Notes: a model not told the origin generated them from the letters alone. A stretch of 64,000 nt of DNA from an uncultured Chloroflexia bacterium (GCA_963797095.1 CAWCNY010000003.1:448001-512000); one strand, 5' to 3'. Counted from the stretch's first letter, positions 1,533 through 55,295 are shown. A program made the numbers and translations.

Positions 1533-1680
1533 CTAAACATGAAACACCCCGAATTCTTAGATGCAGCTTCGCAGGCGTGCAATCTGGTTCTAAAACAAGC
1601 AAAATGGCGGCAAAGCCGCCATTTTGCTTGTTTTAGAAAGCCCCTCCCCAAGATTTTGGTAGGGGTTGGGGTGGGGTCAA
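1533..1680. repeat. ~150-bp palindromic interspersed repeat (REP/MITE-like), copy A
   Basis: Perfect 24-bp inverted repeat at 1588-1611/1615-1638. Homologous in inverted orientation to about 29869-30010. Confidence 0.8.
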
Positions 1681-1701
1681 AGAGGGCAAATCAGAAACCT
1701 T

Positions 1702-2010
1702 GTGATGACTCCGCATGGCGTAAACGCCAGCAGCTTCTACGGTTTTGCACCGATGCATACTCATCCATATGCCATTAAGGTTGCACTATAGGAGACACCT
1801 AAGATGCTTTTACGCTGCACAAGGGTTTCGTGCAACAACCCGCTAACATCTTGCATTATCAAAGTGCGGACTACTACCCGAAGGCAATAGTGGCGTGTAG
1901 CATTGGTTAGCTTCCACGTTACTTCAATTATACGACAAAGGAGAGACTATGAGCAACCTTTTATCAGCCGAACCACAGCCCATAAATGGGCATGGCTTTC
2001 AAGGTTTTCT
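1702..2010 (-). mobile_element. Non-autonomous IS200/IS605-family element (309 bp), copy 1, probable omega-RNA carrier
   Basis: Minus strand: TTAC|LE with AAAG + hairpin ccatgcccat-tt-atgggctgtgg; RE with GAAG + hairpin ctgctggcgt-tt-acgccatgcgg, ending TCAC. 308/309 identical to 30144-30452. Confidence 0.88.
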
Positions 2011-2041
2011 GTAATCGTCAAGAGCACGGGCAGCCCCGCGT

Positions 2042-3592: not shown

Positions 3593-3696
3593 CCCCACCT
3601 CACTATCACTTGCGAATCATGCAGACCGCGCTCCAATCCCGCCCCCAGGACCCCAAGCCCCACCATCGTCCTCCCTCACTCGTCACGCGTCACTTG

Positions 3697-4770
3697 TCAC
3701 GCGTCACCCGTCCACATTCGTCCTTCGTCCTTCGTCTTTCGTCTGTTTTCATCCTCCGTGCCCCCATACAACTCCACCACCGCCCCCGCCGTATCCAGCA
3801 CCGCCATGTGCAAATCCAGAGGCTCAACCACCTCGGCGTTCACCCCCAGCCCCAAAATACTGGCCCTAGCCTCCTCGAACGATTGGAACGTCAGCGTCAA
3901 CCTGATCCACCCATCTCCGTCGGGAGGCCCCGCCCCCTCGATAAGCGCCCTCATCCCTTCCCCGTAGATGCGCGGCAGCATATACACAAAATCGGGCGAC
4001 ACCCGGATCGTCGCACTGTACTTCGGCTGCCCGTCCTGGAACTCCCTCTGCCATCTCTCCCAGTACTCCCGCAAATTGAACCATTCGGGCCTCTCAAAAT
4101 GAGCTTCCATAGCTTCAGCGTGCTGGATCCTCGACACCCTGTACACCTGCAGCGACCGCCGCGCCGCCTTCATCCGCGTAACCCCAAGCGGCCTCGCATT
4201 CGCCGCCACAGCCGCCACCACGTACCACACCCCGCCTTTCGCCACCAACCCGTAAGGCTCAAGACAGCGCCTCACCTTCCCACTATCCGATTTTACATAC
4301 ATTATGTCAACCAACTGGTCGTCCCACACCGCCCGCTGCATCAAATCCAGGTACGGCACGTCCTCAGGCGGTCGAAACCATTCCGCCGTGTCAATGTACA
4401 TCCTCTCCCGCACCTGCTCGATGCTGCGCCGCTGAGTAGGAGGCAGGCTGGCGGTCAGCTTGAGCACCGCCGCCTCAATAGACTTCCCCAACCCCAGGTC
4501 CGCCAGCGGCCCCGGCACCGCCGACAGAAACAGCGCCCGTACCTCCCCCTCGCTCAACCCTGTGAGGTTGCTCCGATAATTATCGGGCAGCAGCACCCCT
4601 CCACCCGGCCCACGCTCGGCCAGCACAGGCACCCCCGAAGCATGCAAAGCCTCCAGGTCCCGGTAGATAGTCCGCTCCGAAACCTCCAATTCCTCCGAAA
4701 GCTCGGCGGCGGTCATCCGCCCCCGCGCCTGGAGAAACATCAATATAGAAATAAGTCTATCAGCACGCAT
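3697..4770 (-). CDS. YafY-family HTH-WYL-WCX transcriptional regulator
   Basis: N-terminal HTH (ELEVSERTIYRDLEAL), EPYGLV..WYVV, YRVSRI. Confidence 0.92.
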   Translation of the reverse strand: MRADRLISILMFLQARGRMTAAELSEELEVSERTIYRDLEALHASGVPVLAERGPGGGVLLPDNYRSNLTGLSEGEVRALFLSAVPGPLADLGLGKSIEAAVLKLTASLPPTQRRSIEQVRERMYIDTAEWFRPPEDVPYLDLMQRAVWDDQLVDIMYVKSDSGKVRRCLEPYGLVAKGGVWYVVAAVAANARPLGVTRMKAARRSLQVYRVSRIQHAEAMEAHFERPEWFNLREYWERWQREFQDGQPKYSATIRVSPDFVYMLPRIYGEGMRALIEGAGPPDGDGWIRLTLTFQSFEEARASILGLGVNAEVVEPLDLHMAVLDTAGAVVELYGGTEDENRRKTKDEGRMWTGDA

Positions 4771-7140: not shown

Positions 7141-7240
7141 AAAGTAATGCGTGTTACGTGTTACGCGTTACGTGTTATGTGACTATCGCTACTCGTCACT
7201 CGTCACTCGTCACTCGTCACGCGCCACTAGTCCCGCCCCA

Positions 7241-29868: not shown

Positions 29869-30066
29869 CTATCCCCAACACCTCCCCAAATTGAGGGGGG
29901 CAGTCTAAAAAAGCAAAAATGGCGGCTTCGCCGCCATTTTTGCTTTTTTAGAACCAGATTGCACGCCTGCGAAGCATCATCTAAAATTCGGGATGTTTCA
30001 TGTTTTAGAAACAGGTTGAGTGCCTGCGAATCTGAACCTGGAAATCGGGAGCGTGCTTGTTTAGAG
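29869..30066. repeat. Palindromic interspersed repeat, copy B (inverted relative to copy A, with an extra ~58-bp tandem unit)
   Basis: Perfect 23-bp inverted repeat at 29904-29926/29930-29952; tttagaa..gcctgcgaa..tcggga..tgt unit occurs twice. Confidence 0.8.
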
Positions 30067-30143
30067 TGTCCGCCCCGTTAGCCGGACGGCTACCTGGGCT
30101 TATGAGGTCAGGGGAGGTGGGGCAGGCCGATGCGGGGGAGGTC

Positions 30144-30452
30144 GTGATGACTCCGCATGGCGTAAACGCCAGCAGCTTCTACGGTTTTGCACCGATGCAT
30201 ACTCATCCATATGCCATTAAGGTTGCACTATAGGAGACACCTAAGATGCTTTTACGCTGCACAAGGGTTTCGTGCAACAACCCGCTAACATCTTGCATTA
30301 TCAAAGTGCGGACTACTACCCGAAGGCAATAGTGGCGTGTAGCATTGGTTAGCTTCCACGTTACTTCAATTATGCGACAAAGGAGAGACTATGAGCAACC
30401 TTTTATCAGCCGAACCACAGCCCATAAATGGGCATGGCTTTCAAGGTTTTCT
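30144..30452 (-). mobile_element. Non-autonomous IS200/IS605-family element (309 bp), copy 2
   Basis: Identical to 1702-2010 except at 30374; inserted 3' of GTAC, which overlaps the cvpA stop codon. Confidence 0.88.
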
Positions 30453-30455
30453 GTA

Positions 30456-30950
30456 CTATTGTTGGAACTCCGGGGGGAGCATGGAGAGGACTACGGGCAC
30501 ATAGCCGCTGAACCAGTGGGCTACCTGCGAATCGCGCACGCCGTCGCTCAGGCCGGGGACCGGGAAGACGGTGGCTACCACCACCATCGCCATTGTGAGG
30601 GTGAGGGCTACGAGGAGGCCCAGGAGAGCACCCAGGAGGCGGTCGAGCCAGCCGAGGAAGAGGAGCCGGGCGACGATGCGCAGAACAGAGCCGACAACCC
30701 CGATAAGGAGGCTGAACAGGATCAGGATGCCGACAAAGGCGATAATATTCGCCCAGTTTTCGTCGGCTACGAGGCCTTTGCCGTCGGCGCCGTGAAGGGC
30801 TGAGGCTACATCAGCGTAGTAGCGCCCAGCGAGGAACAAACCACCGGCGAGTCCTACGAGGGCTATCACCTGGCGTATCAGGCCCCAGAAGAAACCTGCG
30901 ATGGTGCTCGTCGCCAGCGAGGCGAGAATCGTTATGTCAACTGCATTCAT
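30456..30950 (-). CDS. cvpA: CvpA (colicin V production) family membrane protein
   Basis: MNAVD..GFFWGLIRQV, LGWLDRLLGALLG. Confidence 0.85.
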   Translation of the reverse strand: MNAVDITILASLATSTIAGFFWGLIRQVIALVGLAGGLFLAGRYYADVASALHGADGKGLVADENWANIIAFVGILILFSLLIGVVGSVLRIVARLLFLGWLDRLLGALLGLLVALTLTMAMVVVATVFPVPGLSDGVRDSQVAHWFSGYVPVVLSMLPPEFQQ

Positions 30951-42592: not shown

Positions 42593-42610
42593 GATATGCT
42601 TGTTCTCCTT

Positions 42611-42720
42611 TTTATGGTTCCAAGTTCCTGGTAGTCGGTAGTCGGTAGTCGGTAGTCGGTAGTCGGTAGTCGGTAGTCGGTTGTGGGACTAGGAACTTGG
42701 AACTTGGAACTTGGAACTTG
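42611..42720. repeat. Phased heptamer array (agtcggt)n plus inverted (ggaactt)n
   Basis: Directly visible tandem 7-mers. Confidence 0.9.
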
Positions 42721-52720: not shown

Positions 52721-52739
52721 GTTATCCTCCGGGTTGGGT

Positions 52740-52880
52740 TCGTAGTTCCTGGTTCCAAGTTCCAAGTTGATGGTAGTCGGTAGTCGGTAGTCGGTAGTCG
52801 GATCTTCGGGCTAAATACTCGCCACTCGCCACTCGCCACTCGCCACTCGCCACTCGCCACTCGTCACTCGTCACTCGTCA
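52740..52880. repeat. Phased heptamer arrays (tccaagt/agtcggt; actcgcc/actcgtc)
   Basis: Directly visible between coxL and coxM. Confidence 0.9.
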
Positions 52881-55295
52881 TCATGAATTTATGGCACGCC
52901 AGACCTTTTCAGGGCGGAGGGGCATATCGATGTGCTTCACGCCGAGGTCGCTGAGGGCATCTACTACGGCATTGACGATCACGGGGGTGGAGGCGATAGT
53001 GCCAGCCTCGCCCACGCCTTTCACGCCGAGCGGGTTGACGGGCGAGGGGGTGATGGTCGCGCCTGTTTCGATGTTGGGTAGGTCGCTACTGAAGGGCACC
53101 GCGTAGTCCATGAGGGAGCCTGTGATCAACTGCCCTTCCTCGTCGTACACAACCTCTTCCCACAACGCCTGGGCAATACCCTGCGCCACACCGCCATGCA
53201 CCTGTCCATCGACAATCATGGGGTTGATCACGTTGCCGCAATCGTCCACCGCGATGTATCGCAAGATGGTGGTTTCGCCGGTCTCGGTGTCTACATCTAC
53301 CTCGGCGATATGGACGCCGAAAGGATAGGTAAAGTTTACAGGGTCGAAGAAAGCCACCTCGCTGAGGCCCGGTTCCAGGCCTTCTGGGAGGTCGTGGCCC
53401 GTATTGGCTGAGAGGGCGATATCTTCGAAGGAGACCGAACGCTTGACGGTGGGTGGTTGCGCGGCGGCTTCGGGCGTCTGCAATTTACCGCCCGCCACTA
53501 GGTCTTCGTCCAACGGCAGACCGCGCACTGTGATAATACCGTCGTGGATCTCCAGGTCTTCGGGAGCCACCTCTAGCTGGTGGGCCGCGATCTTGAGCAT
53601 CTTGTCGCGCACCTTGATGGCGGCATTGTTCACCGCCGTGCCGTCAACCGCCAGGCTGCGGCTTGCAAAGGTGCCGGTGCCGGTCTGGATCATGCCGGTA
53701 TCGCCCTCGAACACGCGCACTTTGCTGTGGTCGATGCCGAGTTGCTCGGCGGCTATCTGTGCCCAGCTTGTGAGGTGGCCCTGGCCGTGGCCGCTGGCGC
53801 CTGCGAACACCTCCACGGTGCCTGAGCGGTCGACTCGAACGGTGGCGCTGCCAAAAAGCTGGTTCCGCACGCCGAGGCCGGCCGTGGCTTGCCCAGGACC
53901 CCAACCCGCGATCTCCACGTAGGCCGCCATGCCGATGCCGCGCCGCACGCGTGGGTTGCCGCCATTGATCTCGTCGCGGCGCGCCTTCATGCCTGCGTAA
54001 TCGGCCATCTGGAGCGCCTTGTCGAGGGTTGGCACGTAGTTTCCGCTGTCATAGGCAAGACCGGCGGAACTGGTGAAGGGCCAATCTTCTTCCTGCACGA
54101 AGTTCTTGCGGCGCACCTCTGCCGGGTCCATCCCGATCTCGTCGGCGAGCATATCGACCGCACGCTCGATGGCGTAGGTGGCTTCGGGCCGGCCCGCCCC
54201 GCGATAGGCATCCACAAAGAGGGTGTTGGTGTAGCCCACGTGGATGTCTACCTGGAAGCCGCTCAGCTTGTAGTTGCCGGGGAGCATCAGCCCCGCGAGG
54301 ACCGGAAGACCGGCGGCGAAGAATCGGCAGTAGGCCCCAATGTTTGCGTAAAGCTTGACCCGAAGGCCCAGGATCGTGCCGTCACGCTTGGCGGCTATCT
54401 CGACGTAGTCGACTATGTCGCGCCCATGAACGGTGTTTTGCAGGTTTTCCTGGCGCGTCTCGATCCATTTGACCGGCCTGCCCGTGACTATCGCCATGAG
54501 GGGCACAATGAAGTCTTCGGGGAGGATGTTGAGCTTGGAGCCGAAGCCGCCGCCCACATCGGGCGCGATCACGCGGATATTGTTCTCAGGGATGCCGAGC
54601 ATCCCGGCCAGGTGGTGCTTGGTGAGGTGGGGAGTCTGGGTGCTGGACCAGATGGTAAGCTCGTTCATCGGCTTGTTGTACTGGGCCACGATACCCCGCG
54701 TTTCGATGGAGACGGGCGCAAGCCTCTGGTTCACCAGGCGCTGGGTGACCGTCACTTCGGCATCGCGGAAAGCGGCCTCGATATCGCCGGTGGTCACGCT
54801 GAACAGGTATGCCTGGTTGGTGCCCAGGCTTTCGTGCAGGATGGGTGCGCCATCTTTTAGGGCATCCTCGATGTTGGTGACGGCAGGCAGCGGATCGTAA
54901 TCGACATTCACCATATCAAGGGCATCTTCGATGCGATAGCGGTCATCAACCGCCACCGCCGCCACAGGCTCACCTACATAGCGCACCACATCGGTCGCCA
55001 TCGCCCAGTGTTCGGGGGCTTTCAAATCGGCGGGTATAACCCAGGTGATGGGCAGGGGCGATTTCTGGTGGGCGCGCACATCGGCTCCCGTAAGTTTGCC
55101 TCTTACCCAGGACTGCCCATCGAGGGCAGACATATCGATGTTCTTAATACGAGCGTGGGCGTACTGGCTGTGCACAATACCCACGTAAAGCATGCCGGGG
55201 AGCTTGATGTCATCGACATAGGTGCCTGCCCCGGTAACCAGCTTGGGGTCTTCATGCCGTCGCACGCTCGCGCCAACCATGTTGCCTATAGCCAT
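52881..55295 (-). CDS. coxL: Form II CODH-like molybdopterin (large) subunit
   Basis: GGGFGSK, AYRGAGRPE, GQGH, KGVGEAG. Confidence 0.9.
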   Translation of the reverse strand: MAIGNMVGASVRRHEDPKLVTGAGTYVDDIKLPGMLYVGIVHSQYAHARIKNIDMSALDGQSWVRGKLTGADVRAHQKSPLPITWVIPADLKAPEHWAMATDVVRYVGEPVAAVAVDDRYRIEDALDMVNVDYDPLPAVTNIEDALKDGAPILHESLGTNQAYLFSVTTGDIEAAFRDAEVTVTQRLVNQRLAPVSIETRGIVAQYNKPMNELTIWSSTQTPHLTKHHLAGMLGIPENNIRVIAPDVGGGFGSKLNILPEDFIVPLMAIVTGRPVKWIETRQENLQNTVHGRDIVDYVEIAAKRDGTILGLRVKLYANIGAYCRFFAAGLPVLAGLMLPGNYKLSGFQVDIHVGYTNTLFVDAYRGAGRPEATYAIERAVDMLADEIGMDPAEVRRKNFVQEEDWPFTSSAGLAYDSGNYVPTLDKALQMADYAGMKARRDEINGGNPRVRRGIGMAAYVEIAGWGPGQATAGLGVRNQLFGSATVRVDRSGTVEVFAGASGHGQGHLTSWAQIAAEQLGIDHSKVRVFEGDTGMIQTGTGTFASRSLAVDGTAVNNAAIKVRDKMLKIAAHQLEVAPEDLEIHDGIITVRGLPLDEDLVAGGKLQTPEAAAQPPTVKRSVSFEDIALSANTGHDLPEGLEPGLSEVAFFDPVNFTYPFGVHIAEVDVDTETGETTILRYIAVDDCGNVINPMIVDGQVHGGVAQGIAQALWEEVVYDEEGQLITGSLMDYAVPFSSDLPNIETGATITPSPVNPLGVKGVGEAGTIASTPVIVNAVVDALSDLGVKHIDMPLRPEKVWRAINS

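Follow-up and report, generated by a model that had tools for sequence, protein, structure and literature searches.

The stand-alone omega-RNAs of OMEGA systems reportedly have their origin in the work of Altae-Tran et al., published in Science in 2021. In IS608 of Helicobacter pylori, insertion takes place 3' of TTAC, the tetranucleotide AAAG lies 5' of the left hairpin, and the hairpins carry an extrahelical T. As summarised in PMC10691335, stand-alone omega-RNAs are mobilised, carry neither effector nor transposase, occur beside effector loci and are active in trans, with a role given there as unknown. PATEs are said in the Discussion of PMC10055086 to 'often encode omega-RNAs' that need TnpB in trans, and a retention or homing role has been demonstrated for TnpB itself (Meers preprint, PMC10055086; 2026 OMEGA review, PMC13565253). 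In the ISDra2 omega-RNA seen by cryo-EM, as described in PMC10097598, nt -5 to -3 pair with the loop of stem 1 to form a pseudoknot, while a UUUA loop caps the last stem. Among 59 TnpBs surveyed, processed scaffolds ranged from 79 to 466 nt, and the only constant reported was a 3' hairpin no more than 10 nt away from where the scaffold ends (PMC10278001).

We analysed a window of 64,000 nt (C3:448001-512000 of genome G000, which is 6.0 Mb in size) that holds two copies of a small repeated element whose sense strand is the minus strand of the window. Its features, all on the minus strand, are as follows.

1702..2010, minus: mini-element copy 1, 309 bp, a gene-less IS200/IS605 derivative (PATE)
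30144..30452, minus: mini-element copy 2, 309 bp, one base unlike copy 1
2011..2014, minus: TTAC, target site of copy 1, which would double as the TAM of the empty donor site
30453-30456, minus: GTAC, left flank of copy 2, from the alignment of own-genome copies
1973..1999, minus: left end, with AAAG at 1996-1999 and a bulged-T hairpin with a TTTA loop at 1973-1995
1927..1932, minus: -10 box TATAAT; the TG found 2 bases upstream in most relatives is absent in copy 1
30369-30374, minus: -10 box CATAAT of copy 2, its first base differing from copy 1
1774..1925, minus: 5' domain of the predicted RNA, of which about 135 nt would be transcribed (helices 1-4 and a UUCG hairpin)
1702..1773, minus: omega-RNA-like core, from alignment to tnpB 3' ends and pseudoknot covariation
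1761-1765 and 1704-1708, minus: predicted pseudoknot between hairpin loop GAUGA and tail UCAUC, from covariation
1740-1752, minus: small hairpin of the core, from the core alignment
1734-1737, minus: GAAG tetranucleotide at the foot of the right-end hairpin
1711-1733, minus: right-end hairpin with a bulged T and a UUUA (TTTA) loop
1702-1705, minus: TCAC, terminal tetranucleotide of the element and its right boundary
1682..1701, minus: flank readable as the putative guide of copy 1, unique to this flank
30124..30143, minus: flank readable as the putative guide of copy 2, adjoining its right end

The initial annotation had described two 309-bp copies one base apart, and BLAST found exactly that: the copies are direct repeats, 100% identical over 300 nt in a repeat search and 99.68% identical over 312 nt by BLAST, and the sole differing base (1932 A vs 30374 G) is the first base of the -10 hexamer on the minus strand. 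It had also proposed to look in the genome for further copies and for a parent with tnpA and tnpB, and BLAST and profile searches recovered both, the parent as two IS605 copies. With BLAST, the element matched eight full-length copies in its own genome (98.7-100% identity), two left-truncated copies of 266 and 219 nt, one copy at 86% identity and several fragments, and a profile search added seven more diverged copies. The right boundary is sharp, as all 11 aligned own-genome copies close in ...GGAGTCATCAC (TCAC) and diverge beyond it. TTAC lies directly 5' of six of the eight full copies, the remaining two having GTAC (window copy 2) and CAAC (C3:686k); it also precedes most of the diverged copies, where TGAC is among the exceptions besides GTAC and CAAC. 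The flank is not repeated at the opposite end in the aligned own-genome copies, so there is no target duplication.

Both ends resemble those of IS608. On the left, AAAG is followed by CCAT-GCCCA-TTTA-TGGGC-T-GTGG, a stem of 4+5 bp with a bulged T and a TTTA loop; on the right, GAAG is followed by CTGC-TGGCG-TTTA-CGCCA-T-GCGG, again with a 4+5 bp stem and a bulged T, and then by AGTCATCAC. The right hairpin covaries in an alignment of 14 copies, nearly all of which keep GAAG and TCAC. AAAG pairs with TTAC, and GAAG with TCAC. The right end thus reads as it was first annotated, with its bulged-T hairpin and TCAC close; for the left end, the AAAG, the hairpin and the TTAC 5' of copy 1 stand, but copy 2 follows GTAC rather than TTAC. 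The mini-element shares with IS608 the TTAC, the AAAG, a right tetranucleotide matched to the cleavage site and the bulged-T hairpins, and differs in its right end (TCAC/GAAG here, TCAA/GAAT there) and in having no genes. It has no terminal inverted repeats and bears subterminal imperfect hairpins at both ends, as expected of a PATE. No open frame runs across it in any of the frames checked, none of them shows any likeness to TnpB, and neither tnpA nor tnpB lies inside, in agreement with the initial annotation. The 309-bp element is therefore a gene-less derivative of the IS200/IS605 family. The PATEs of Geobacillus stearothermophilus are likewise gene-less, with IS200/IS605 ends and mobilisation in trans (PMC10055086).

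The only frame of the element that had been singled out before is a 21-codon stub on the plus strand, with its ATG at 1949 and a TAA stop at 2012-2014 contributed by the target site. At window positions 1938-2014 (plus), an RBS-like GGAGAGAC and the ATG open this frame, which reads out via the left end. We rejected it as a gene: the peptide varies freely where the left-end hairpin covaries, and the ATG is missing in 2 of 10 type-1 left ends. On the sense strand, the motif CATAGTCTCTCC is also present in full-length IS605, between the left end and tnpA. Since this motif is conserved while the stub peptide is not, it may serve another role.

We then considered what lies between the ends. Diverged full-length copies (66-84% identity) occur in the same genus in genomes G015, G001 and G016; the last of these, an unpublished genome, did not enter any alignment. 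MAFFT was used to align 14 distinct copies (alignment A1), for which RNAalifold predicted 43 pairs. Compensatory changes were found at 29 of them, so that the homologs do covary; 92.4% of the cells were paired, as against 21-48% when partners were slid by 1-3 columns, and none of 500 shuffles reached the observed covariation score. A second alignment, made by fitting 20 distinct sequences to the model and so biased in its favour, had 93.8% of cells paired and 34 of 43 pairs compensatory. G-U cells outnumbered A-C cells (74 vs 20), indicating that the fold belongs to the sense strand, and the C(UUCG)G hairpin, like the two guides quoted in the initial annotation, was as stated there. Invariant unpaired stretches were also seen between the ends of the 14 aligned copies.

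A TATAAT-like hexamer stands at the same place, just behind the left end, in 15 of 16 elements, most of them with TG two bases before it (TGnTATAAT-like); among the nine near-identical copies retaining the region, six have CATAAT rather than TATAAT. The promoter had been proposed as TTGCTC-18-TATAAT. Its -10 part is borne out by this conservation, and its -35 part is not: only 3 of the 6 bases of TTGCTC are those of the consensus, and a consensus promoter scan did not list the site because of this poor -35. A start about 7 nt past the -10 box would give a scaffold of about 218 nt. Together, the alignments support an interior that encodes a conserved structured RNA and supplies the -10 box for it.

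A covariance model (R1) was built from alignment A1, and genome matches were taken at E up to 1. In the element's own genome it gave 23 matches: 17 long RNAs, one intermediate match (C6:414943-415123), one weak match and four TnpB-linked matches, of which three lie where an intact tnpB gene has its 3' end and the fourth lies at a broken copy of the gene. The model ends exactly at TCAC in all copies. Inside the element there was no Rfam match at E up to 10, and at seven tnpB loci none at E up to 0.1 save one chance miRNA match. A loose motif scan of genome contigs returned at least 120 stretches, and none of the 80 scored fits the RNA model; we regard them as chance matches. A strict version of the scan gave one match in metagenome contigs, a further mini-element (L198), and no match in viral contigs.

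The proposal that the RNA is related to the omega-RNAs of TnpB was borne out by the covariance model for one part of the molecule. Only its last ~72-85 nt align with tnpB 3' ends, in the own genome and in relatives, at 45-56 bits; the parts in common are a hairpin, the small hairpin, GUAGAAGC, the right-end hairpin and the tail. The core underlies the C-terminal tail of the protein in typical relatives, whose tnpB frame extends to the very end of the element (...NILALGLQSIGSQSVEAPGFSHGE). The interior is not a decayed tnpB, however, since only this 3' part aligns, with the tnpB 3' end where omega-RNAs lie, and the 5' 135 nt do not. By eye, 'CTTTGA...AGATGTT' resembled the part of tnpB that codes for RuvC-III, but neither nhmmer nor the covariance model supported this. 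In 11 TnpB-linked ends, conserved structure was predicted in the last ~73 nt only. These comparisons support homology of the 3' part to the right end of TnpB-bearing IS605 elements, where the omega-RNA is encoded.

Within the core, the loop of the first hairpin is predicted to pair with the tail 3-7 nt before the element end, which is also where the guide would begin. In the mini-elements, 92.9% of the pseudoknot cells are paired and four of five pairs are compensatory, against 19-66% paired when slid, with partners such as GAUGA/UCAUC, GGCGG/CCGUC and GGCAAC/GUUGUC. In the 11 TnpB-linked right ends all 55 of 55 cells are paired and two of five pairs are compensatory, against 20-58% when slid, and the partners are GAUUA/UAAUC, GACUA/UAGUC and GACGA/UCGUC. 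The terminal hairpin stops 9 nt from the scaffold end, inside the 10 nt found for surveyed TnpB scaffolds. The omega-RNA of ISDra2 TnpB as described in PMC10097598 has the same order of parts, with the guide 3' of the right end, a UUUA loop and a pseudoknot before the guide, the last of these being a prediction in our case. The two RNAs show no detectable sequence similarity, and they differ in core length (~72-85 nt here vs 116 nt) and in TAM, which is TTGAT in ISDra2 and putatively TTAC here (PMC10097598). As a putative assignment, the omega-RNA interpretation has good backing from homology and covariation.

Could the same structure instead belong to DNA? According to this alternative, the element is a plain PATE or MITE whose internal pairing serves the folding of the excised ssDNA circle or recognition by TnpA, and no functional RNA is made. 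The structure does lie on the strand that TnpA would excise, which in IS608 is the top strand, and because G-T pairs can also form in DNA, the strand bias cannot separate an RNA from top-strand DNA. In addition, no transcript of this organism itself has been seen, the RNA-library contigs described below coming from relatives. However, IS608 TnpA needs only subterminal hairpins and guide tetranucleotides for recognition, while in our element some 200 nt between the ends are conserved, with 29 of 43 pairs covarying and unpaired stretches held invariant. The -10 box placed exactly upstream in 15 of 16 elements is also unaccounted for, as is the pseudoknot, which is the one described for TnpB guide RNAs, and the RNA part remains intact in left-truncated copies, which have lost the ability to transpose. 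We therefore consider a purely DNA-level role distinctly unlikely.

If the RNA is an omega-RNA, a TnpB and a TnpA should be available to it, and the initial annotation had anticipated a cognate TnpB. Profile searches of the own genome gave four Y1_Tnp transposase matches and eight TnpB zinc-ribbon matches. Two identical IS605 copies (C3:~1052789-1054450 and C1:~424100-425690) each encode a 129-aa TnpA and a 357-aa TnpB. The left end of this IS605 (C3:1052789-1054450) is 80% identical to that of the mini-element over 85 nt and follows TTAC, and its right end resembles the last ~70-85 nt of the mini-element and terminates in TCAC. The 357-aa TnpB matches ISDra2 TnpB structures with E 1e-45 and has OrfB_IS605, TNB and HTH domains; it has HRDVA in place of the DRDxN of typical TnpBs. 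A second intact TnpB of 388-399 aa (C2:1032892-1033980) has a DRDLN motif and a related right end, and the remaining TnpB matches are distant or broken. A tnpA and an intact tnpB are thus present elsewhere in the same genome, with the 357-aa and the 388-399-aa proteins as intact candidates. None of the 17 long mini-element RNAs adjoins a tnpA or a TnpB match, the nearest gap to the latter being 2.7 kb.

Looking at the two identical 357-aa TnpB genes (C3:1052858-1053928 and C1:424551-425621), we noted that they read HRDVAAA where relatives read DRDLNAS. They also end before the usual C-terminal tail, which places the guide-RNA core beyond their stop codon rather than under the frame.

We next asked what the guides might be for. 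The initial annotation saw in the copies a dispersed guide library serving a TnpB or TnpB-derived protein. In an extended form of this idea, the guides would steer TnpB or a nuclease-dead relative to other targets, to the benefit of the host in defence or gene regulation; exapted TnpB relatives described in PMC10705468 are RNA-guided transcription factors. The flanks, and with them the guides, are indeed all different in 18 of 18 RNA copies examined (the boundary is off by 2 nt for two diverged copies). Yet each guide is host DNA beside its own insertion, and none of the 18 had a second TTAC-preceded genomic site at up to 2 mismatches in 16 nt, so each guide matches only its own empty donor site. 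Moreover, a TnpB search of the own genome found only ordinary IS-borne TnpB genes or fragments. The library interpretation was not supported by this comparison, and we regard it as very improbable; self-retention of the element is the more likely role for the guide. The atypical HRDVA and missing C-terminal tail of the 357-aa TnpB, the closest candidate partner, would count against retention. Neither an empty site nor a circle junction was found; in G017, a syntenic relative without the element, the spacer is too diverged to show a TTAC-guide joint.

The distribution of the RNA was compared with that of the two proteins. Covariance-model matches were found in 4 of 25 relatives of the genus, as long RNAs in G001, G015 and G016 and as short or weak matches in G024. 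All four are among the eight relatives with TnpB matches, and none of the 17 TnpB-less relatives has a model match, in counts that include the unpublished genomes G016, G021 and G022 and relatives that are not independent of each other. All five tested genomes with such RNAs have TnpB matches and four of the five have a Y1 TnpA, the exception being G001, which is 71% complete. This pattern is ambiguous, as dependence on TnpA alone would equally explain why the mini-elements are confined to TnpB-bearing genomes.

In genome G024, contig C255 (L017, about 241-543) contains a mini-element of similar size that has the same left end and right-end core with another interior; only ~96 nt of it match the RNA model.

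The 5' part of the RNA sets the element apart. Its ~135 nt comprise helices 1-4, the UUCG hairpin and invariant single-stranded stretches, and no counterpart was found in the 11 TnpB-linked right ends examined. For that reason, binding of the whole RNA by TnpB is an assumption. The corresponding 5' region of the ISDra2 omega-RNA (-231 to -117) is disordered in the structure of PMC10097598, whereas here the 5' extension is conserved and structured. When 151 genomes of the phylum were searched with the model, the 5' domain turned up again in a second family of the same class (genus g12; loci L199, L200, L202, L205 and L207), where the left end is different and a -10-like box is again present. 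In tblastn searches with TnpA and the two TnpBs against 22 loci (~±1.5 kb), none of the 18 long-RNA loci gave a match, while all four loci with short 3' matches did. As judged from these sequences, with the 11 TnpB-linked right ends as the comparison, the 5' domain occurs only in gene-less elements.

Four diverged RNA modules in the same genome (G000 C4:557669-557879, C2:787242-787454, C2:1331513-1331733 and C3:701834-702064) have another upstream end. It consists of GGCTAAGACC, then a hairpin, then GGGATACAGC, with short tandem repeats in two of the four. These copies suggest that promoter, RNA and right end have moved as one module and become linked to another kind of left end.

Such strong conservation of the 5' domain across two families is what one would expect if the element were a mobile small-RNA gene, or an outward-firing promoter, that works without TnpB, its 5' domain being the functional part and its omega-like 3' part being kept as a transposon end. 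The domain is missing from all 11 TnpB-linked right ends and matches no known RNA family, which fits the same idea. On the other hand, TnpA presumably needs nothing as far upstream as the hairpin and pseudoknot, which covary in gene-less and TnpB-linked ends alike; the presence of TnpB genes in every tested genome that carries the RNA also speaks for a link to TnpB. For an outward-firing promoter, a terminator-like hairpin ~80 nt past the right end of copy 1 argues against read-out into genes. We judge this explanation to be unlikely.

Transcription of relatives was looked for in assembled soil RNA-library contigs, where relatives of the RNA occur in four records from three runs and two studies, at low depth and with DNA carry-over possible. 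A further run, X11, gave no match, and the parts of the stretch that are uncovered in runs X3, X12 and X8 carry no information. Three of these contigs extend 39, 58 and 19 nt beyond the right end (the value of 19 is a reading of a loose end, and contig ends are inconclusive as termini). One contig of 221 nt reaches from beyond the right end to the equivalent of window position 1902, near the predicted start. Coming from relatives rather than from this organism, the contigs are a weak sign of a transcript that crosses the right end.

Considering all of this, we favor the interpretation that these transposons are stand-alone omega-RNA elements relying on a TnpA and a TnpB supplied in trans, which the sequence comparisons make probable. 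The element would be a non-autonomous IS200/IS605 transposon (PATE) whose sole cargo is a promoter and a ~220-nt RNA, the 3' end of the scaffold coinciding with the right end. The Y1 TnpA of the related tnpA-tnpB IS605 copies would mobilise it in trans, with insertion 3' of TTAC. A transcript begun at the -10 box, just inside the left end, would cross the right end into the flank and so form an omega-RNA with the adjacent host sequence as its guide. Its 3' core, made up of the hairpin, the pseudoknot and the terminal hairpin, would be bound by a TnpB from another locus. After excision, TnpB could cut the rejoined empty site, which would present TTAC and a match to the guide, and repair from the sister copy would restore the element. 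If retention works in this way, the element would parasitise both TnpA and TnpB. A bolder proposal, which we put forward only tentatively, is that guide-only transposons form a long-lived lineage in at least two families, with their own promoter and ~135-nt 5' domain, rather than being sporadic deletion products. The 5' domain might then help the parasite's RNA to capture TnpB, for instance by making it more stable, by aiding its processing or by letting it compete with the guide encoded in cis, or it might have a separate function; in both cases the elements would be hyperparasites of the IS605 transposase and nuclease.

Parts of this picture are already in print. Like the stand-alone omega-RNAs, with which we compare it by way of the summary in PMC10691335 only, the mini-element is a mobilised guide RNA copy without effector or transposase, in a genome with effector loci, and each copy has a flank-derived guide; it differs from them as summarised there in being tied to TnpB and IS605, in its own -10 box and in its extra 5' ~135-nt domain. 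For the PATEs of PMC10055086 the omega-RNA is a remark in the Discussion, whereas the present family adds covariation, a promoter and a lineage-specific 5' domain found in two families. A search of open-access full text, supplements lying outside it, found no description of a promoter-bearing, 5'-extended guide-only lineage. The combination of promoter and extra 5' domain thus appears to be new, and stand-alone omega-RNAs and omega-RNA-bearing PATEs are not.

The family offers a compact test case, as one genome holds a 309-bp element with defined ends, a promoter and a covarying RNA together with a candidate TnpA and two candidate TnpBs. It bears on whether TnpB is hijacked by guide-only transposons so that they are retained, on how much guide RNA TnpB needs, given a shared core of ~72-85 nt, and on what the 5' domain contributes. 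A very short natural scaffold with a 5' module that possibly affects RNA stability or loading could also aid the design of compact guides for genome editing.

Two other kinds of repeat were seen in the window. A repeat of ~145 bp that contains a long perfect palindrome (window 1585-1640) lies at window 1535-1679 and 29873-30005 (C3:477873-478005), in the first case 23 nt past the right end of copy 1 and in the second 139 nt past that of copy 2. The palindrome at 1585-1640 looks like a terminator hairpin when read as minus strand. We considered whether this repeat is tied to the mini-element and rejected the idea: it occurs at ~76 places in the genome, and only the two window copies of 17 lie near one. 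Finally, tandem arrays of 7-base units (TCGTCAC, GGTAGTC and relatives) are found at window positions 3652-3720, 7172-7240, 42601-42694 and 52736-52894, among others.
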